Positions 347 through 44,379 of a DNA stretch of 64,000 nucleotides are shown piece after piece. Positions within the stretch are counted from its first letter, which is position 1, and every line of letters begins with the position of its first letter. The stretch is taken from the UHGV virus genome UHGV-0371537, one strand, 5' to 3'. Origin of the DNA: a virus. Under the pieces are notes generated by a model, which saw only the letters and a list, made by a program, of their open reading frames with translations, ran no database searches and was not told the origin of the DNA. A program made the position numbers and the translations under genes.

Positions 347-770
347 ACGGGTCGACAATGTAGTCTACAATCCAAGTTTCAAGTTTTACCGCCAGAGGAG
401 ATTTGTCGTCTTCATCCAGGGTGTAATATCTTTTGCCAGTACCCTTCAGTGGGTCATGTATGACAACTTTGTCGCCTCGGGTATCCATAATGATCTGATG
501 CAATATCCCTGGCGTTGCTGGACTTGGCACGCAAAGAAGGTAGACATAATCATGATAGATGGTGGCAGTTTGGTTGACTCCCTTCCCACACAAGAATGGA
601 ACCCCTTCCATACAAAGAACGTCACCAATCGTGGTTTCCCAATTTGAGAAACTTTCATGCCATGTTTCAGCAACCTCGGCGACCGGGCGATCAAGCAACA
701 TCGCCAGACACGTTGACATACACGTGTCCTTTGTTGGCTGCATCTGATGAGTTAGCGGATATTCCATCAT
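321..770 (-). CDS. small papain-fold (C39-like) cysteine peptidase domain protein
   Basis: 149-aa ORF with Q..DTCMSTCLAMLL (Gln/Cys, C39-like DCG-x-ACLAM) and a downstream HQIIMD...VVIHDP His/Asp-Pro block; start overlaps the gp39 stop and the stop overlaps the gp52 start. Confidence 0.45.
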   Translation of the reverse strand: MMEYPLTHQMQPTKDTCMSTCLAMLLDRPVAEVAETWHESFSNWETTIGDVLCMEGVPFLCGKGVNQTATIYHDYVYLLCVPSPATPGILHQIIMDTRGDKVVIHDPLKGTGKRYYTLDEDDKSPLAVKLETWIVDYIVDPYEVGGYRG

Positions 771-2680
771 TCATCCTCAGTTTCAAACAGACAAACATCG
801 CTGAACCAGGTTTTGCGATAATCGGCGGCCTCATCACCGAAGCCATTCTTCAGTGACTGTTTGTAGCCGTCGTCCAGCGTGACCGTCGTAGTATACGCAT
901 CCAGGTTGTTTAGAATACGTTTGAAGTCTTCAGTGCTGTTACCGCCCAGACCTTTCAGATATTTCTTCTTCGTGATCTTCTTGGCATCAGGAGTCTTCAG
1001 GAATTCCTCATACTCGGCGTTGTTCATGAACTCATGCATCACCTTACCACACCACACACGCATATAAGGGGTGCGCAGGAGTTTCAGCCTGCCCTGACGG
1101 ACGTACTCTGGCCAGTAAGTGCAATACAAGGTGATCAGCAAGCCACGGATGTGAATGCCGTCATCGTCCGCATCGGTAGCCACAACAGTCTGTGGGTAGC
1201 GGCTGATGTCAAGGGGCTGACCGGGTACTGCGCCGCCATGGATGGTGCACAGGTTCTTGAACTCTTCGTTCGCCATCACTTTTGAGCGCGGTGCGTTCAG
1301 GCAGTTGATGAACTTACCACGAAGCGGGAACAACCCGATCTTTTTGGTGTCACGGGCGTTCAGGATAGGGTTGGAGGCGCTATCACCCTCAGTCAGCAAC
1401 AGGGAGCAGCCACTGCGGTCACCACGGGCGGTCGCCGGGTAATACTTCTCAATCTCACGGTAATCGCGCTTGCTGATATCCTTCTTGGCCTTTTCAAACT
1501 CGGCATCATCCTGGTCGTTGCGCAGAGCCGCCAGTTCTTTGCTCAGGCCAGCTGCAACGAACTCCAGCGCCTTGCGGATGAGTTTGTCGCTGGGCTTGTA
1601 GGATGTGCCAAACTGACTAACAGGAGTCGTCATACGCTCCTTGGTCTGGCTATCAAAGCGCGGGTTGTTGATGTCGGCAGCGATAAACAAGGACATGTGG
1701 TTCTTGATCATTGCTGGCTTCAGTTCGGTCTTGAACTTCTTAACCAGCTGAGGACGAATCGCAGCCACGATCTGGTCGGCCACATAATCAACATGAGGAC
1801 CACCGATGTGGGTGGCGATTGAGTTCACGTATGATGCGTGCATGAACGTACCGGATGAAGGGGCTACAGCAACAGACCAGTCCCCGGTTTCATCGACAGC
1901 GGAGCCAGCGTGGAAGTAATCAACAAAATGGCCGAAGCGGTCAATGCGGATCTGCTTACCATTAAGCACAACCTTCAGGCGCGGGTTACACGCCGCGACT
2001 TCGAATGCACGACGGTAGATCATGAGCAGGTTGTTCTGGTCAAGCCCTTTGACGCCCAGGCGAGCATAGTCAGGGATCCAGGCGATGGTGGTGCCGAACT
2101 CTTTCGGTGTATTGCTGATGACCGGATTAGACTTCTTGCTCATGTTGTCTTCAAACAGCTGGGCATAAGACTTCTTGCCGTCACTGGTAGCAACACGGAA
2201 CCACTTTGAGAACACGTTGACGAGGGACGCCCCTTCGCCATTCTGACCGCCGGACTTCTGGTTGTTGTACTCCTCGTCCTCATCGTTGAAGTTACTACCC
2301 GCATAGAGCGAGCCAAACAACATCTCAGGGAGCCACTCATTGGTGACGCCATGCTTGACCACAGGGATACCCCCGTTGTCAGCAACGATGATTTGACCGT
2401 TCATCGGGGAAACCGTGACAGTGATTTCCGTCAGGGATTTACCCTCAGGCGTCTTGCTGTGGTCAACACAGTTGGTGATGATTTCATCAAACTGTTTGAT
2501 CAGCGCCGGGGAATATTCGAAGTTGTCACGAAAGATGACTTGGTCTTTGGTTGGGTCGTACACCCACACCGTACCAACAGACGAACGGATGCTGCCCAGA
2601 TGACGCTCTGGGCGAAGTAGGATATGCTCAACGTGGGTGAGCTTCTTGTACTTGCGTTCAATATCAATTTTATTGGACAT
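767..2680 (-). CDS. gp39: DNA topoisomerase II large subunit (GyrB-like ATPase plus Toprim), single unsplit ORF
   Basis: 637-aa ORF with GHKL ATPase N-terminus (HILLRPERHLGS), and LLLTEGDSA and VATDADDDGIHI Toprim motifs; T2/T6-type unsplit architecture. Confidence 0.9.
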   Translation of the reverse strand: MSNKIDIERKYKKLTHVEHILLRPERHLGSIRSSVGTVWVYDPTKDQVIFRDNFEYSPALIKQFDEIITNCVDHSKTPEGKSLTEITVTVSPMNGQIIVADNGGIPVVKHGVTNEWLPEMLFGSLYAGSNFNDEDEEYNNQKSGGQNGEGASLVNVFSKWFRVATSDGKKSYAQLFEDNMSKKSNPVISNTPKEFGTTIAWIPDYARLGVKGLDQNNLLMIYRRAFEVAACNPRLKVVLNGKQIRIDRFGHFVDYFHAGSAVDETGDWSVAVAPSSGTFMHASYVNSIATHIGGPHVDYVADQIVAAIRPQLVKKFKTELKPAMIKNHMSLFIAADINNPRFDSQTKERMTTPVSQFGTSYKPSDKLIRKALEFVAAGLSKELAALRNDQDDAEFEKAKKDISKRDYREIEKYYPATARGDRSGCSLLLTEGDSASNPILNARDTKKIGLFPLRGKFINCLNAPRSKVMANEEFKNLCTIHGGAVPGQPLDISRYPQTVVATDADDDGIHIRGLLITLYCTYWPEYVRQGRLKLLRTPYMRVWCGKVMHEFMNNAEYEEFLKTPDAKKITKKKYLKGLGGNSTEDFKRILNNLDAYTTTVTLDDGYKQSLKNGFGDEAADYRKTWFSDVCLFETEDE

Positions 2681-24865: not shown

Positions 24866-25324
24866 TTATTCTTCCCAGAAGTCGTCATCGTCGCCGACGG
24901 CGGCCAGTTCCGTGTCCAGGTCTTCATCGGTGAACGGTGGCAGCACCCCATTCTGAATCAGATAGTCCATCTCATCGTCTTCCAGCTGCAGGTCAGTGGC
25001 AATATACAGCGCTCCGCTGCCCTCTTCGTCCGTTTCGATGCTGTATGAAGTGTATGACACCCCATTCACTGTAATGATGACAGACGTTGGATCCTCGGGA
25101 TCTACGTGAGCCTCGAACGGCACACCATCAATCGGCGCATCTTCCAGGAAAGTGGCGAGGGCTACTGCAGCACGGACAACATCAGTGCCTTCAACGCCTG
25201 CATAGATCTCTTCCGCGCCCGTCTCTTCACGATCAAACAGTTCAATCGTGATACCGTCTTGAACACCAGTCCATACAGGGATGTCATTGGTGTGTTCTGA
25301 TTCAAACAATTTGGAGGTTGGCAT
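24866..25324 (-). CDS. hypothetical acidic protein
   Basis: 152 aa, highly acidic (DEDLDTELAAVGDDDDFWEE); CTAAATA late-promoter-like element upstream. Confidence 0.5.
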   Translation of the reverse strand: MPTSKLFESEHTNDIPVWTGVQDGITIELFDREETGAEEIYAGVEGTDVVRAAVALATFLEDAPIDGVPFEAHVDPEDPTSVIITVNGVSYTSYSIETDEEGSGALYIATDLQLEDDEMDYLIQNGVLPPFTDEDLDTELAAVGDDDDFWEE

Positions 25325-25347: not shown

Positions 25348-25365
25348 CATATGGGGTATTTAGGC
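25348..25365 (-). promoter_or_regulatory. late-promoter-like CTAAATACCCCATATGG upstream of the acidic protein gene
   Basis: Minus-strand reading GCCTAAATACCCCATATGGCTAAC about 30 nt upstream of the ATG at 25324. Confidence 0.45.
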
Positions 25366-25824
25366 TTCCCGCACTGCCAGGCCGGGTTTGTACAGAACGA
25401 TCTCACGAACCATAGGCAGACCAACACGGTCAAGAATGATCGTGGAGTCGTAGCCCTGGGAGATTAGCTCGGCGGCGTTCTCATGGATCTTACCCGGTTC
25501 GATACCAAGTTCACGCATAGCGTCTTCCCAGGCCGAAACATTATTAGAGTCGAGTTCGAGGGGCTTCTTAACACTGACGTTAAACACCAGAACATGGGGT
25601 TCACCGCTCTGGCGATAGCGAACGGCGTTCTCAGCATAGCGCTGCGCCTCTTCTTCGTTGCCTGTCAGATAGAACCCAGGTCCCATCGTACCGCAGTCAG
25701 TCTGGCCGAAGCGCTCAAAGTCGAAGACATCGAATTCTACGTTGGAGCCGTGAAAGAGGCGCATGTTACCGAACTTGGGTTCAGCCTCAGACGCCTCTTT
25801 AAGATATTCAAGAAAGGTTTTCAT
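25360..25824 (-). CDS. capsid-targeted mini protein with PARP-like (H-Y-E type) ADP-ribosyltransferase motifs
   Basis: N-terminus MKTFLEYLKE resembles the T4 internal-protein capsid targeting sequence (MKTYQEFIAE); downstream LFHGS, GPGFYLT and VREIVLY spaced like PARP H-G-S, G-x-G-I-Y-F and N-E-Y-I-V-Y; late-promoter-like CTAAATA plus inverted repeat immediately upstream. Confidence 0.6.
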   Translation of the reverse strand: MKTFLEYLKEASEAEPKFGNMRLFHGSNVEFDVFDFERFGQTDCGTMGPGFYLTGNEEEAQRYAENAVRYRQSGEPHVLVFNVSVKKPLELDSNNVSAWEDAMRELGIEPGKIHENAAELISQGYDSTIILDRVGLPMVREIVLYKPGLAVREA

Positions 25825-25826
25825 AG

Positions 25827-25857
25827 ATACCCCACACTGGTTGTATGGGGTATTTAG
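25827..25857 (-). promoter_or_regulatory. late-promoter-like CTAAATA plus 8-bp inverted repeat (ATACCCCA / TGGGGTAT) abutting the start codon of the PARP-like gene
   Basis: Minus-strand reading CTAAATACCCCATACAACCAGTGTGGGGTATCT-ATG. Confidence 0.5.
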
Positions 25858-38710: not shown

Positions 38711-38751
38711 CTAAATACCCCTAGATGAAACGAACACATTTAGGGGTATTT
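38711..38751 (+). promoter_or_regulatory. late-promoter-like CTAAATA followed by an 11-bp inverted repeat (AAATACCCCTA / TAGGGGTATTT) upstream of tailspike 4
   Basis: Read directly in sequence; the same module recurs upstream of other late genes. Confidence 0.5.
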
Positions 38752-38754
38752 GAA

Positions 38755-41736
38755 ATGGCTAATAAACCAACACAGCCTGTTTTCCCTCTCGGTCTGGCGG
38801 CTGAAGAGCAGTCTACTTTGGCTGGTGTCCTCAACACGGGTACGATTGAGCATGGACCAGATGCTGTCCTGACTTTACCAGAGGGTAATGCCAGCGCAGG
38901 ACTCCCGTCTTCCGTTCGCTACAATGCCGACTCCGACGAATTTGAGGGCTTCTATGAAAATGGTGGATGGTTGCCGCTGGGTGGCGGTGGTATCCGCTGG
39001 GAAGTCCTTCCGCATGCCTCTACGGCAACGCTCACTGAAGGGCGAGGCTATCTCATTAATAATACCACAGGGGCATCTACAGTGGTTCTCCCTTCCCCTA
39101 CGCGTATTGGGGATTCCGTTACTATTTGTGATGCTTATGGGAAATTTGCCACTTACCCATTGACCGTGTCTCCTTCTGGAAATAATTTGTATGGCTCCAC
39201 TGAAGACATGGCTATAACAACTGATAACGTATCAGCAACGTTCACTTGGTCTGGACCTGAACAAGGTTGGATTATTACATCCGGCGTCGGTCTTGGCCAA
39301 GGTCGTGTCTACAGTCGTGAAATCTTTACAAAAATTTTGGCGTCTGAAACAAGTTCTGTCGCTCTCAATACTCCACCAACAATTGTGGACGTGTATGCTG
39401 ACGGAAAACGTCTTGCGGAATCCAAATATTCACTAGATGGGAATGTAATCACTTTCAGTCCTTCTTTGCCAGCCAACACAGAACTTCAGGTGATTGAATA
39501 TACTCCTATTCAATTGGGTAATGTCAGTGGTTCTGGTTCTTCTACGATTACCTGGGTCTATAATGGGGGTTCAGCGATTGGTGGTGAAACCGAAATCACG
39601 TTGGACGTCGTTGTTGATGATGTTCCGGCCATTGATATAAACGGAAGTCGCCAGTATAAAAATCTGGGATTCACATTCGATCCATTAACCAGTAAAATCA
39701 CTCTTGCGCAAGAACTGGAACCAGAGGATGAAGTTGTTGTAATTATCAATGGAACACCAAACATCTATAATCAAATTGATTATACTTTGCGGGAAGTTGC
39801 TCGAGCAACCAATGTTAAAGATACAGAGGTCGTTTATTTTAGTGTTGGTGCTGCGTTAAGTGGGTATAAAGTTATTTATGACAAGGAGACGCAAAGGGCT
39901 TATCCCTTGCCTGCTGATATTGTCCCTGGTACTACTGCTGTCAGTCTTAGTTCTTCCGCTATACTTGTGCATTCTGCTGGTAGTGTTGATCTGGGCGCAT
40001 TAGCTGTATCTCGTGAAGAATATGTTACATTGTCTGGGACATTTGATTCTGGTGCTGTCATCAATGTTAAAAATGAATTACTCACCCATACTGATGGAAA
40101 GTATCGTTGGGATGGTACACTTCCTAAAACCGTTGCTCCTGGCTCAACTCTTATGACAACAGGCGGCGTTGGTGTTGGCGCATGGATTAGTGTTGGTGAT
40201 GCTTCATTGAAGTCAGAATTGGCTAAACCTACAGGAGCAGGTTTTTCAGGTTTTGATAAGTCAATTGATTACGAAACTGGTACTGTTGGCAATGCGCTTA
40301 AGAAAATTATAAATGTCAACCCGGATATGTATCCATCATTACAGGATGCGATTGATGCTGCGGCAGCTTTAACAGGTTTAGAACATGCACCAAGTAGTGC
40401 TGCTAACCATCCTGACTGGCTACAACCTAACACTGTAAGCAAAGTTATCAGGCTGAATGGGAAGAAATATCCTATCAGTACGACACTACACATTCACGGA
40501 GATGTTAGCATTGATGCTGGTTTCGGTGGGGTGTACCTCACCGATGACTTCGTTGCAGACTCCTCTGGCTATGCTGTTAAATGCGATAAAGGGACGGGTA
40601 ATCAATACGCTGGGCATATCAGCAACTTATTAATTGATGCCCGTGCAAAAACTGTTAATGGGTTTAAGATATCCGATGGCTATGCTAACAAGTTAGAAGG
40701 CATTTACGTAGCCAACGTTGATGGTCATGGCATCCATATTGCTGGCGGTATGGGTGTGCACCTATTGAAGTTTTATGCTGTTGGTGTATTAAAACCAACT
40801 AATCCGCTCAGCACAGCCCACATTGTTGAAGGTAGCGATCATCAGGTTAGCATGGGTGAAGGTCGTTATTTCCGATTTGGTACCTGGGTTCGTGGTGGTG
40901 GTAATAACAGAATTGGTAAGGTGCACAACTGGGGCATGTATGACGATACAGTCACCGACCAGAACTCAAGGATGAAATGCTGCTTTGTTGTACAGAACTC
41001 AATAAACAATTCCTTCAATCAATGTTTTGCAGATTCTCCATCAAAATGGGACTACACGAAAGCTAATTTAGATCCTGTAGATGGTTATATTAACGGCGGG
41101 ATTGGTTTTTTTATTGATGGTGGAGCCACCGGTAATACGTTCTCTCAATGCCAGACGTTTGTGAATATGAATGCGTTTAATGACGCAGGGTTATCTGCAT
41201 ATGCGGCATCACTAATGCCATTCGCCGTTGGCAGTATCAATTGCTCATTCATTGAGTGTGAAAACTCAAACTCACCAGCATGGGTGGCAAGACTGATAAC
41301 TCATATTTACTCTGTGGATCAGGCATTTACTAACATACTCGCAGCTAAGAATTTTGTTGGTATAGAGTATGATATGGTTTGCAATGGTACAATTTTCAGG
41401 AAAAATGTTGGAGTTCCTGTATTGGTAAGAAATTCAAAGTTCGAGACGCCAACAGCAAGTTATGCGCCTAACTTTTCAGACGCATCTTACATCGCAGCTA
41501 CAGTTACAGGAGATGTAACAATAACACCAGCAGTATTAACAAATACACTAATTGGTTATGTTGAGGTTCTTTTGGCTGTCTATTCAACAACATCTAAAAC
41601 AATAACATTTGGTGCAAATGTTATATTAGCAAGTAGTACCCCATCTTTGACAGCAGCTGGAACACAAGTTTTTAGGTTGTCAACAACTGATGGAGGAACG
41701 ACTTGGTTCTGTAAGTTCGAGAGTGCTTACCCGTAA
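38755..41736 (+). CDS. tailspike / tail fibre protein, paralogue 4 (extended N-terminal anchor region plus shared module plus distinct C-terminal domain)
   Basis: Contains the about 150-aa module shared by all four paralogues (VVYFSVGAALSGYKVIYDKETQRAYPLP...GKYRWDGTLPKTV...GAWISVG); Gly/Asn-rich C-terminal region; start set to the ATG after the inverted repeat (ORF track begins at 38725). Confidence 0.75.
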   Translation: MANKPTQPVFPLGLAAEEQSTLAGVLNTGTIEHGPDAVLTLPEGNASAGLPSSVRYNADSDEFEGFYENGGWLPLGGGGIRWEVLPHASTATLTEGRGYLINNTTGASTVVLPSPTRIGDSVTICDAYGKFATYPLTVSPSGNNLYGSTEDMAITTDNVSATFTWSGPEQGWIITSGVGLGQGRVYSREIFTKILASETSSVALNTPPTIVDVYADGKRLAESKYSLDGNVITFSPSLPANTELQVIEYTPIQLGNVSGSGSSTITWVYNGGSAIGGETEITLDVVVDDVPAIDINGSRQYKNLGFTFDPLTSKITLAQELEPEDEVVVIINGTPNIYNQIDYTLREVARATNVKDTEVVYFSVGAALSGYKVIYDKETQRAYPLPADIVPGTTAVSLSSSAILVHSAGSVDLGALAVSREEYVTLSGTFDSGAVINVKNELLTHTDGKYRWDGTLPKTVAPGSTLMTTGGVGVGAWISVGDASLKSELAKPTGAGFSGFDKSIDYETGTVGNALKKIINVNPDMYPSLQDAIDAAAALTGLEHAPSSAANHPDWLQPNTVSKVIRLNGKKYPISTTLHIHGDVSIDAGFGGVYLTDDFVADSSGYAVKCDKGTGNQYAGHISNLLIDARAKTVNGFKISDGYANKLEGIYVANVDGHGIHIAGGMGVHLLKFYAVGVLKPTNPLSTAHIVEGSDHQVSMGEGRYFRFGTWVRGGGNNRIGKVHNWGMYDDTVTDQNSRMKCCFVVQNSINNSFNQCFADSPSKWDYTKANLDPVDGYINGGIGFFIDGGATGNTFSQCQTFVNMNAFNDAGLSAYAASLMPFAVGSINCSFIECENSNSPAWVARLITHIYSVDQAFTNILAAKNFVGIEYDMVCNGTIFRKNVGVPVLVRNSKFETPTASYAPNFSDASYIAATVTGDVTITPAVLTNTLIGYVEVLLAVYSTTSKTITFGANVILASSTPSLTAAGTQVFRLSTTDGGTTWFCKFESAYP

Positions 41737-41798: not shown

Positions 41799-41836
41799 CT
41801 AAATACCCCATATTGGTCATCCTTTATGGGGTATTA
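41799..41836 (+). promoter_or_regulatory. late-promoter-like CTAAATA plus inverted repeat (TACCCCATA / TATGGGGTA) upstream of tailspike 3
   Basis: Near-identical to the module at 44337-44373. Confidence 0.5.
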
Positions 41837-41838
41837 TC

Positions 41839-43788
41839 ATGATTTCTCAATTCAATCAACCACGCGGCTCCACTTCCATAGAAGTTAACAAACAATCTAT
41901 CGCTCGAAATTTCGGTGTCAAAGAAGACGAAGTCGTTTATTTCACTGCTGGTATTGATCTCAGTGGATTTAAAGTAATTTATAATGAGTCTACCCAACGG
42001 GCTTATTCTCTTCCTTCAGGTATTGTTTCAGGAACGACTGCTGTTAGTCTTAGTGCTAACGCTGTTCTTATGCACTCAGCTGGTTCTATAGACCTCGGAG
42101 AATTAGCCGTATCTCGTGAAGAATACGTTACATTGCCTGGGTCATTCACCTCGGGTGCTACGCTTAATGTTAAAAATGAATTGCTTACCCATACAACAGG
42201 CAAGTATCGCTGGGACGGGGAATTTCCTAAAACCGTTTCTGCAGGTTCTACCCCTGAATCTGCTGGTGGTGTTGGTCCTAGTGCGTGGGTTAGTGTTGGT
42301 GTTGCTTCTTTAAGAGCAGACCTGGAAAAACCAACAGGGGCAGGATTGATTGGATTTGGCTGTTCTCCATATATAAATAGAAATATTGGAGATGTTCTCC
42401 AGGATATACCAACGAACAAATATTTTGGTGCAAAGTGTGATGGCGTAACTGATGATACTGTAGCTAACCAAACTGCACTTGATTGGTCTGCTGACAATAA
42501 AAGAGATGTTATTTTTGTTGGAAAAAGCTGCATAACAAGCAGACTTGTACACAATTCAGGCTCCAGGGTAACACATCTTGGAGAGATCAAACCTCGTGAT
42601 TTTTCTGATGATGTTGTTATTGAGGTAAAGGACGATGCGTGGCGTGATCCTTACAATGATGGAATAACAGCAATCGATACTGGCGATAGAGTTCATATTG
42701 ATGGTCTATGTATTGCCCCTGACTCTGTAATAGATGCTGTTGGTATTCTTGGCACTGATGGAGTGGATCCGATCATATCAAGATTAAGAACATTCAACAT
42801 GAGAAGGGGAGGAATTAAGATTGTTAAGGGGTATGGATGGAACATATCAAACATTTCAATCATTGCACCTTTTGATCAAAATAACTCTCATGATTATGCA
42901 GGAATTAGGCATGAAACGTCAGATTCATTTTATTCTAGCGTTATAGTTTCAGGATATACTACTGGACTTGATATGCCTGGAAATGCTAATCAAGTATCAA
43001 AGGCCCACTGCTGGGGAATGTCATTACCAGATAGAACCACTCGTAATATGTTATTCGGCCTTAAAATGAGCGGTAGTGGTAATAACGTAGTGCAATTCTA
43101 TTCTGATTCTCCTAAAAAAATTGATAAAACACAAGCTGCAAGCATTACAAATGGTGGGATTGGCTATGTAATTTCTGGTTTTAACAACACATTTTTATCA
43201 CCTAGGAACCTATCTCATCAGGATTGTGGCTTGAAATATGGTAAGGTTTTTCTGATATCTGGTTCTGAGAATACCTTTATTAGCCCCTTAATAGGTGATT
43301 ATGACTACATTGAAGATGATGGATTTTTCACATTTACAGATTCGGCAAGCCCGCTAAACAACTATGTTTATGGTGGCAACATGCAATCTACATATTTGTA
43401 CCCAATTGCAAGTGGTAGCTATAAACCAACTGTAAACATCCCATGCACATACAGCTCTCAAATATATAACCATAATATCATTCAGAAAAATGTTATGGGA
43501 AGAGTTGTTATTACATGCAATATTACAAGTAATTCATCCGACGATCCATTCTATATACAACTGCCACCTTATCTATCAGCTGTATCTGGGATGGCAAGTG
43601 GATCAATAATTAACAACCTTACATCGTCAGTAAGAGCTGATAGCAACCTTTTTGCAGTCGAACCTTATGTTTCAAATGGTAAAATCTACTTCCGTAGATT
43701 ATTTAGATCTGGAGCTGCTGATGATATAAAGCAAAATATGCTTAACACAGGTAATGCTTTCTTTGATATATCAATAAATGCAAGATAA
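41839..43788 (+). CDS. tailspike protein, paralogue 3 (shared module at N-terminus plus distinct C-terminal domain)
   Basis: N-terminal region VVYFTAGIDLSGFKVIYNESTQRAYSLP...GKYRWDGEFPKTV homologous to the other three paralogues. Confidence 0.75.
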   Translation: MISQFNQPRGSTSIEVNKQSIARNFGVKEDEVVYFTAGIDLSGFKVIYNESTQRAYSLPSGIVSGTTAVSLSANAVLMHSAGSIDLGELAVSREEYVTLPGSFTSGATLNVKNELLTHTTGKYRWDGEFPKTVSAGSTPESAGGVGPSAWVSVGVASLRADLEKPTGAGLIGFGCSPYINRNIGDVLQDIPTNKYFGAKCDGVTDDTVANQTALDWSADNKRDVIFVGKSCITSRLVHNSGSRVTHLGEIKPRDFSDDVVIEVKDDAWRDPYNDGITAIDTGDRVHIDGLCIAPDSVIDAVGILGTDGVDPIISRLRTFNMRRGGIKIVKGYGWNISNISIIAPFDQNNSHDYAGIRHETSDSFYSSVIVSGYTTGLDMPGNANQVSKAHCWGMSLPDRTTRNMLFGLKMSGSGNNVVQFYSDSPKKIDKTQAASITNGGIGYVISGFNNTFLSPRNLSHQDCGLKYGKVFLISGSENTFISPLIGDYDYIEDDGFFTFTDSASPLNNYVYGGNMQSTYLYPIASGSYKPTVNIPCTYSSQIYNHNIIQKNVMGRVVITCNITSNSSDDPFYIQLPPYLSAVSGMASGSIINNLTSSVRADSNLFAVEPYVSNGKIYFRRLFRSGAADDIKQNMLNTGNAFFDISINAR

Positions 43789-44336: not shown

Positions 44337-44373
44337 CTAAATACCCCATATTGGCAAATCCTCTATGGGGTAT
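44337..44373 (+). promoter_or_regulatory. late-promoter-like CTAAATA plus inverted repeat upstream of tailspike 2
   Basis: CTAAATACCCCATATTGG-N-TATGGGGTAT, as upstream of tailspike 3. Confidence 0.5.
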
Positions 44374-44379
44374 CTTCAA

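Follow-up and report, generated by a model that had tools for sequence, protein, structure and literature searches.

A stand-alone ART-PolyVal protein with a T4-like N-terminal leader in ViI-like phages, a candidate virion-borne ADP-ribosyltransferase

The subject of this work is a gene located at positions 25360..25824 (minus strand) of a 64,000-nucleotide stretch of the virus genome UHGV-0371537, the whole of which is referred to here as the window. Its 154-residue product is an ADP-ribosyltransferase (ART) domain of the ART-PolyVal family, which belongs to the H-Y-E clade of diphtheria toxin and the PARP enzymes, and its orthologs have been detected in the virions of two related phages. In addition, the protein begins with the decapeptide MKTFLEYLKE, which resembles the capsid-targeting sequence that phage T4 has on its internal proteins. 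The preferred reading is that of an enzyme packaged in the phage head by means of this leader and injected into the host with the DNA, a mechanism to which, as a whole, a rough probability of 0.55 was assigned.

The window comes from an Agtrevirus-like (ViI-like) phage of the Ackermannviridae. The DNA around the ART gene was 87–95% identical to that of Ackermannviridae phages, the top match being Salmonella phage pSal-SNUABM-02 (Agtrevirus), and LIMEstone-type Dickeya phages likewise matched this region. The open reading frame (ORF), whose coordinates include the stop codon, starts with ATG and encodes a protein of 17.4 kDa with an isoelectric point (pI) of 4.8; every string quoted in a preliminary description of this DNA was present at the locus, on the minus strand. 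By tblastn, 222 phage records were positive at 62–98% identity, and these genomes were essentially all ViI-like phages infecting Salmonella, Escherichia, Klebsiella and Dickeya. Orthologs include LIMEstone1 ORF173, Sajous1 gp116, CBA120 orf229 and pSal-SNUABM-02 gene 094, and the UniProt name given to the orthologs is 'ART-PolyVal-like domain-containing protein'. The protein also matched phrog_4700, a family without assigned function, from end to end (E 1e-78). The ORF is a genuine conserved gene, and no close stand-alone relative of its product was found in cultured phages outside the Ackermannviridae.

The assignment to the ART-PolyVal family was obtained with the Pfam model PF18760, which matched residues 21–130 with 41.9 bits (E 2.2e-10; curated gathering threshold, 31.2 bits), and both PF18760 and PF13151 are assigned to the orthologs in precomputed tables. 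DUF3990, a member of the same Pfam clan, scored slightly under threshold. No match was obtained with the Pfam models PARP, Diphtheria_C and Exotox-A_cataly or in NCBIfam, and PADLOC gave only weak half-domain matches to the candidate systems PDC-M13, M10 and M42, which are uninformative on function. When 1.84 billion representatives were scanned exhaustively with HMMER, 445 relatives were recovered, most of them single domains within polyvalent proteins of 1000–7000 residues and a few of them stand-alone proteins of about 150 residues. The 154-residue protein is a single domain of the latter kind; being a module of a large polyvalent protein is typical of ART-PolyVal domains but does not define them.

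The three elements of an H-Y-E active site were located in the protein at the expected places. LFHGS (residues 23–27; 25744..25758, minus strand) corresponds to the strand-1 H-G-[ST] motif that binds nicotinamide adenine dinucleotide (NAD) and contains the predicted catalytic His25, GPGFYLT (residues 48–54; 25663..25683, minus strand) is the strand-2 motif with Tyr52, and VREIVLY (residues 139–145; 25390..25410, minus strand) is the strand with Glu141, at the position of the catalytic Glu of the PARPs and diphtheria toxin. A near-invariant G124-Y-D126-S motif precedes this last strand. H25, Y52 and E141 were invariant in all 18 members of the phage clade; in the wider set of relatives, H25 and G26 were each found in 82 of 82 sequences, D126 in 80, Y52 in 77 and E141 in 61. 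When a profile built from an alignment of 45 sequences (A2) was compared with the sequences of the PDB, its 'YHGt' aligned to the YHGT of exotoxin A (catalytic His), its 'GfY' to the GFY of exotoxin A (Tyr) and of PARP4, and its 'GYDgv...kEvvaF' to the PARP4 segment 'GYDSV...DEFVVYK', which includes the catalytic Glu of the PARPs, with E values for PARP and toxin sequences from 4e-4 to 0.05. The mapping of PARP/diphtheria-toxin motifs proposed in the preliminary description was therefore borne out by the alignment of H25, Y52 and E141 to known catalytic positions. The same PDB search with the single sequence returned only noise, such as TPR designs.

The fold was consistent with the motifs. 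An AlphaFold2 model computed from alignment A2 reached a mean predicted local distance difference test (pLDDT) score of 89.6 and a predicted template modelling (pTM) score of 0.80, and its strands 18–27, 51–54 and 138–144 carried H25, Y52 and E141, respectively, so that the motif residues fall on the strands of an ART fold and not on unrelated elements. The best structural match was a pre-ejectosome protein of cyanophage A4 (PDB 9k3a chain B; score 9.7), followed by a Streptomyces ADP-ribosylating toxin (9.4), diphtheria toxin (8.5), PARP15 (8.4), tankyrase-2 (8.3), MbcT (8.3) and PARP4 (8.2), with Arr and AcrIF11 at 5.8 each. The pseudo-PARP domains of TASOR, RCD1 and SRO1 were also among the matches, and a Foldseek search of the model recovered the same families. 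R-S-E toxins reached scores of only about 4, and the protein has neither an R-S-E active site nor membership in an Alt/VIP2-type family. The fold expected by the preliminary description and its distinction between this protein and the R-S-E enzymes Alt, ModA and ModB of T4 were thus both upheld. These results indicated that the protein is an ART-PolyVal domain of the H-Y-E clade, and the conservation of its active-site motifs suggests that it is probably a catalytically active, stand-alone NAD+-dependent ADP-ribosyltransferase.

The protein can be compared with other ARTs of known structure or function. With diphtheria toxin, exotoxin A and the PARP/tankyrase enzymes it shares the motifs Y-H-G-[ST], G-F-Y and E-h-V-h-Y and a similar spacing of the triad, which in the protein of the window is 27 residues from H to Y and 89 from Y to E. 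However, identity to these enzymes is only 17–23%, the protein lies outside their Pfam families, and it is much smaller and lacks their translocation, receptor or regulatory domains. AcrIF11, an ART with which phages counter a host defence, demonstrates that a mini ART can serve as such an effector. AcrIF11 and Arr gave weaker structural matches, belong to other sequence families and carry no leader, and neither of them is known to be packaged in virions. The cyanophage A4 protein was resolved inside the capsid and is destined for ejection, but it is a multidomain podovirus ejection protein of 1071 residues that had no significant sequence match to the A2 profile.

The presence of the protein in phage particles, which had been claimed from the sequence of the window, is supported by published mass spectrometry of orthologs from two other phages. 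The LIMEstone1 record labels ORF173 'unknown structural protein; confirmed structural protein', and the corresponding mass-spectrometry table lists it at 17.33 kDa with 11.84% coverage from 1 peptide (PMC3296691). Since 18 of 152 residues equal 11.84%, this peptide should be the internal 18-mer LNNPIVLDSNNASAWEDR, the only tryptic peptide of 18 residues, and it is uninformative on the N-terminus. All twelve unknown structural proteins of LIMEstone1 have structural counterparts in ViI (PMC3296691). In Sajous1 (Kuttervirus), gp116 adjoins the gene for an enzyme dependent on pyridoxal phosphate (PLP), and its translation is the ART ortholog; it was detected with 10 spectra in virions purified on caesium chloride (PMC10892097, Table 6). 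A crude size scaling against the portal, present in 12 copies (89 spectra, 63 kDa), suggests a few copies of the ART per Sajous1 particle.

The leader occupies codons 1–10 of the gene (25795..25824, minus strand) and closes with L-K-E, after which comes A-S, as in cleavage sites of the T4 gp21 type. As read in NC_000866, the leader of the T4 internal proteins (IP) IPII and IPIII is MKTYQEFIAE, then A(S/R), within the N-termini MKTYQEFIAEAR and MKTYQEFIAEAS, and the N-terminus of the ART is MKTFLEYLKEAS. Seven of 12 positions were identical between the ART and IPIII, including Glu10 and the Ala-Ser after it, and the changes at positions 4, 7 and 8 are conservative (Y/F, F/Y and I/L); the parallel with T4 drawn in the preliminary description was accordingly retained. 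Mutagenesis of the T4 leader has assigned positions 4 and 7 to targeting and positions 8 and 10 to processing (PMC9026906, a review of Black's work). MKTF was invariant in the phage clade. From residue 11 onwards, the Sajous1 ortholog reads STLPDFTDIVLYHGSNVEFDVFDFEK and the protein of the window ASEAEPK...

Similar leaders were found on other small genes of these phages. In a six-frame translation of the window, the strict pattern MK[TS][FY]x[ED][FY][LIV]xE occurred twice, both times at the start of an ORF, and in none of 200 shuffles. The second occurrence is the leader MKTFLDFLNE of a 101-residue ORF at 62967..63272 (plus strand), unrelated to the ART and located between the genes for the tail sheath (60994..62925) and the tail tube (63301..63864). 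This ORF had no match in Pfam, PHROG, NCBIfam or PADLOC and was found in 7 phage records only, including SKML-39, CAU_YEP3, ZQ1, LHE287 and Magnus; its leader makes it a candidate for a second cargo of this targeting system. An GCCCCCGAAAGGGGGC hairpin lies upstream of it, and the equivalent slot in LIMEstone1 is occupied by a homing endonuclease. Leader-type starts were also present in pSal-SNUABM-02 gene 099 (MKTFGDFIAE) and LIMEstone1 ORF167 (MKSFSDYLNE), and a metagenome contig (SRR18164388_132097, positions 696..1282) carried two adjacent leader-bearing ORFs, namely an ART-PolyVal protein starting with MKGLDEYLNE and, directly after it, an ORF starting with MKSYLDILNE that is cut by the contig end. 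This two-leader arrangement recalls the variable internal-protein cassettes of T4-like phages. A recent recombination of 5' DNA cassettes was considered as the origin of the shared leader and rejected, as the DNA shares only ATGAAAAC.T.T and scattered bases; with so little sharing at the DNA level, conservation lies in the peptide. The sharing of the T4-like leader with other small ORFs appears to be more than chance and constitutes a well-supported lead, and capsid targeting by this leader is supported but not proven.

The comparison with T4 extends beyond the leader. IPI, IPII and IPIII share with the ART the decapeptide M-K-T-[YF]-x-E-[FY]-[IL]-x-E followed by Ala-Ser, several unrelated small proteins per genome bear the leader in T4 as they do here, and homologs of gp21, gp22 and gp23 are presumably encoded by this phage too. 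LIMEstone1 encodes annotated homologs of the gp21 protease and the gp22 scaffold, the latter with 12 [LIV]-x-E|[AGSK] sites that include LKE|A and LKE|S; in the phage studied here, these genes would lie outside the window. On the other hand, the mature parts of the proteins are dissimilar, the cargo here being an acidic enzyme, and the phages belong to different families (Ackermannviridae and Straboviridae). Moreover, cleavage and head location are established for the T4 proteins, whereas for the ART both are predicted.

The expression signals of the gene are those of a late gene. A late-promoter-like element, CTAAATACCCC, is located at 25847..25857 (minus strand), 22 nt upstream of the ART ATG, and the window holds 5 exact copies of it where 0.46 would be expected. 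CTAAATA sites were directly upstream of start codons in 9 of 11 cases, mostly those of tailspike, baseplate, neck and sheath genes, and in the LIMEstone1 record a putative late promoter is annotated immediately upstream of ORF173. A hairpin at 25827..25853 (minus strand; arms ATACCCCAyAC and GTGTGGGGTAT; −17.2 kcal/mol, z −4.3) overlaps the 3' end of the promoter and abuts the start codon, its 3' arm GGGGTAT lying next to the ATG in the Shine-Dalgarno position. The module formed by CTAAATACCCC and the inverted repeat ATACCCC...GGGGTAT thus spans 25827–25857 (minus strand) before the ART gene, and it recurs on the plus strand before three tailspike genes, at 38711–38760, 41799–41840 and 44337–44375. 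The hairpins of these modules have energies of −17 to −24 kcal/mol and z values of −3 to −5, and their 3' arms stop short of the start codon by a few bases. In Sajous1 and pSal-SNUABM-02, the ortholog is likewise preceded by the module. The late promoter with an inverted repeat that had been noticed before was in this way confirmed by its enrichment, by the hairpin statistics and by the LIMEstone1 annotation. A promoter of this late-only type would make sense for an early-acting enzyme only if the latter travels in the particle.

These elements can be joined in the following mechanism, for which T4 Alt serves as the working model. The ART would be transcribed from its own late promoter alongside the structural genes, and the decapeptide MKTFLEYLKE, acting as a T4-type capsid-targeting sequence, would bring it into the scaffolding core of the prohead. 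A gp21-type prohead protease would then cleave it after Glu10 (L-K-E|A-S), leaving an enzyme of 144 residues (~16 kDa) in the head at low copy number. At infection, the enzyme would exit with the DNA and ADP-ribosylate a host macromolecule, whereby host functions may be taken over or a defence disabled, as Alt does from a different ART clade. Alt is a late gene whose product is carried in the particle, like the ART gene described here (as judged from the virion data of its orthologs), and is injected with the DNA to modify host proteins at the expense of host NAD+; its terminal propeptides are cut off by the gp21 prohead protease (PMC9026906). Nevertheless, Alt belongs to the R-S-E (Alt/VIP2) clade, is a protein of ~75 kDa and is unrelated in sequence to the H-Y-E domain beyond the superfamily fold.

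Several observations weigh against this mechanism. The evidence from virions is modest, amounting to the one LIMEstone1 peptide and the ten Sajous1 spectra; the same datasets list RegB, DNA ligase, PhoH and clamp-loader proteins, so that carry-over is possible, and such data do not tell a head from a tail location. The leader of some Kuttervirus-type orthologs is MKTFLEFYYGEK, without L-x-E at positions 8–10, and the ART is acidic whereas IPII and IPIII of T4 are basic. No terminator was found between the ART gene and the upstream gene for a PLP-dependent enzyme, and read-through from the latter could therefore allow earlier expression and an action inside the producing cell. Experiments on any ART-PolyVal domain were not found in the searchable literature, which does not cover all journals. 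Finally, in the MAFFT alignment F4, Y7 and L8 fall beneath the F-x-x-W-F motif found ahead of the ART domain in polyvalent proteins (F-x-x-[WFY]-[FL] before H-G-[ST] in 56–70 of 82 relatives), and residues 4–14 form a helix in the model (pLDDT 73–84), so that the N-terminus could belong to the domain itself and stay uncleaved.

This last point is the basis of the alternative that has to be taken most seriously, although it is unlikely, according to which the protein is an active virion-borne ART without T4-type targeting, its N-terminal helix being part of the domain, its likeness to T4 coincidental or convergent, and the uncleaved protein residing in the tail, baseplate or portal region. In relatives, a gene close by is annotated as tail completion protein, and the best structural match is part of a podovirus ejection protein on the portal; both would fit such a location. 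A stand-alone relative (P0055), however, has the leader MKGLDEYLNE and, after it, the sequence FFEWFKDSKV with the motif typical of polyvalent-protein ARTs; as it carries both, the leader is an add-on distinct from the F-x-x-W-F element. The same type of decapeptide also starts non-ART ORFs of the same genomes, and the match to T4 reaches E10 and the Ala-Ser that follows, which likewise argues for a T4-type leader. Rather improbable is an intracellular enzyme that consumes or processes NAD+ (a NADase or phosphorylase, like RES/MbcT) or that modifies nucleic acids, perhaps in connection with DNA hypermodification. A fold resembling those of the RES/MbcT NAD+ phosphorylases and of Tpt1 and the matches of the PADLOC candidate families PDC-M13A/B to the N-terminal half of the protein are in line with it, but the triad and the G-Y-D-S...E-h-V-h-[YF] motif fit the diphtheria toxin/PARP transferases and not the sites of RES or Tpt1, and the gene has its own late promoter and orthologs whose products were found in virions.

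The link to hypermodification derives from the gene directly upstream, whose product, a PLP-dependent enzyme of 397 residues (25864..27057, minus strand), corresponds to ViI gp226, which acts as O-serinyl-thymidine decarboxylase in the pathway of 5-NeOmdU DNA hypermodification. The pathway of ViI has been reconstituted in vitro with gp67/gp243, gp247 and gp226 and without the ART protein (PMC8989533), which makes a role of the ART in DNA modification unlikely; participation in thymidine hypermodification was consequently rejected as the main interpretation of the gene. A catalytically dead ART fold, serving as a minor structural or assembly protein or present as a contaminant of virion preparations without any role in infection, is very improbable. 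Pseudo-PARP domains do exist, peptide counts were low and the annotation says only 'unknown structural protein', but H25, G26, S27, Y52, E141, G-x-G and G-Y-D do not vary between genera whose overall identity is only 62%, and part of the family does without the gene, as would not be expected of a core structural part.

The injected, head-packaged enzyme may also be seen in a wider frame. Tentatively, at somewhat below even odds, the T4-like leader would be a general address label of the Ackermannviridae that loads exchangeable small cargo into the head for co-injection, with the H-Y-E mini ART, the 62967 ORF, the ORF167/gene-099 family and possibly the acidic neighbour of the ART as candidate cargoes. 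This neighbour, a protein of 152 residues (24866..25324, minus strand; pI 4.05; phrog_3852), is encoded downstream of the ART gene behind a second CTAAATACCCC (25353..25363, minus strand), which drives the gene of this neighbour, has no hairpin and overlaps the ART stop codon (GCC TAA). It is the counterpart of LIMEstone1 ORF174 and Sajous1 gp115, both found in virions by mass spectrometry, the latter with 31 spectra in virions purified on caesium chloride (PMC10892097, Table 6). Its N-terminus, MPTSKLFE|SE, contains an L-x-E site, that of its Serratia phage 3M homolog is MLESKLFLKE|AD, and its C-terminus is DDDDFWEE; speculatively, its composition is like that of a DNA mimic. The neighbour was considered as an obligate immunity or partner protein of the ART and rejected in this role, since it was present in 278 records against 222 for the ART and occurs in phages that lack the ART, such as Serratia phage 3M. 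The ART is thus an accessory gene that forms no obligate pair with it. The acidic protein was also absent beside the distant stand-alone ART relatives, which are known from short metagenomic contigs.

The minus-strand gene order at the locus begins with a 217-residue protein (27127..27780), followed by the PLP enzyme, the ART and the acidic protein, and a hairpin beyond 24866 lies at the convergent junction. Positions 27781..28340 contain no ORF of at least 40 residues, and they are followed by a transfer RNA (tRNA) region at 28341..31126 with five tRNA genes (Ser, Tyr, Asn, Arg and Met). Inside this region, 29403..30752 (minus strand) encodes a trimeric-autotransporter-like protein of 449 residues. 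Its N-terminus resembles a signal peptide, it contains long repetitive stretches that look like coiled coils, and its C-terminal part is a YadA-like membrane anchor (PF03895; 51.4 bits, cut-off 22.7). Beside the tRNA genes, a 220-residue ORF at 31117..31779 (minus strand) showed sub-threshold matches to phage endonuclease I, NUMOD3 and PvuRts1I-like domains and is probably a gene of the homing-endonuclease type. No homologs of pSal-SNUABM-02 genes 097, 098 and 099 were found within the window by tblastn; in LIMEstone1 they correspond to ORF169, whose product is confirmed as structural, to ORF168 and to ORF167, the one with the leader.

With respect to previous work, the ART-PolyVal family, related to the Tox-ART-HYD2 domains and found in polyvalent proteins of phages and plasmids, was defined computationally by Iyer et al. 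in 2017 as the commonest protein-modifying domain of such proteins; by analogy with T4 Alt, its members were predicted to be delivered alongside the DNA and to modify macromolecules of the host (PMC5512222). A survey from 2022 further argued that ARTs are often packaged in the virions of myoviruses (PMC9503650). The novelty attributed in the preliminary description to a distinct small injected H-Y-E effector was consequently overstated, and its emphasis on size does not stand either, as ARTs of ~140 residues such as Arr and AcrIF11 are known. The ART assignment is correct but already present in UniProt, and the virion association has already appeared in print, with the protein called 'unknown structural protein'. 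The protein shares with the other members of the family a sequence score above the cut-off, the strand-1 His, the strand-2 Tyr, an acidic residue on a later strand and a phage origin. It differs from them in being a stand-alone protein with a short T4-like leader, whereas most of the others are modules of proteins of 1000–7000 residues or MuF, virion RNA polymerase (vRNAP) and portal fusions, and in its third residue, which is Glu in this clade and Asp in the H-Y-D prototype (PMC5512222). A T4-like leader on a stand-alone ART-PolyVal protein of the Ackermannviridae is apparently undescribed. No paper was found that combines 'capsid targeting sequence' with any Ackermannviridae term in the searchable literature, which leaves some journals uncovered, and a 2024 review of the Ackermannviridae does not mention ADP-ribosylation, internal proteins or anti-defence.

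The ViI-like phages, among them CBA120, Vi01 and the LIMEstone type, are widely used in therapy and biocontrol. If about four fifths of them inject an NAD+-dependent enzyme, this would matter for host range and for their encounter with NAD+-based and other defences, and injection would also bear on safety assessments that report 'no toxin genes'. A soluble ART of 154 residues lends itself to study far more readily than the giant polyvalent proteins, and a ten-residue leader that functions in the Ackermannviridae would make it possible to load proteins into these phages, following the precedent of T4. Should the leader be a general address label, the ART would be the first stand-alone ART-PolyVal enzyme whose route of delivery is defined, it would act after injection as an effector of anti-defence or takeover, and the capsid-targeting system would be older than the split between T4-like and ViI-like phages and readable from sequence.

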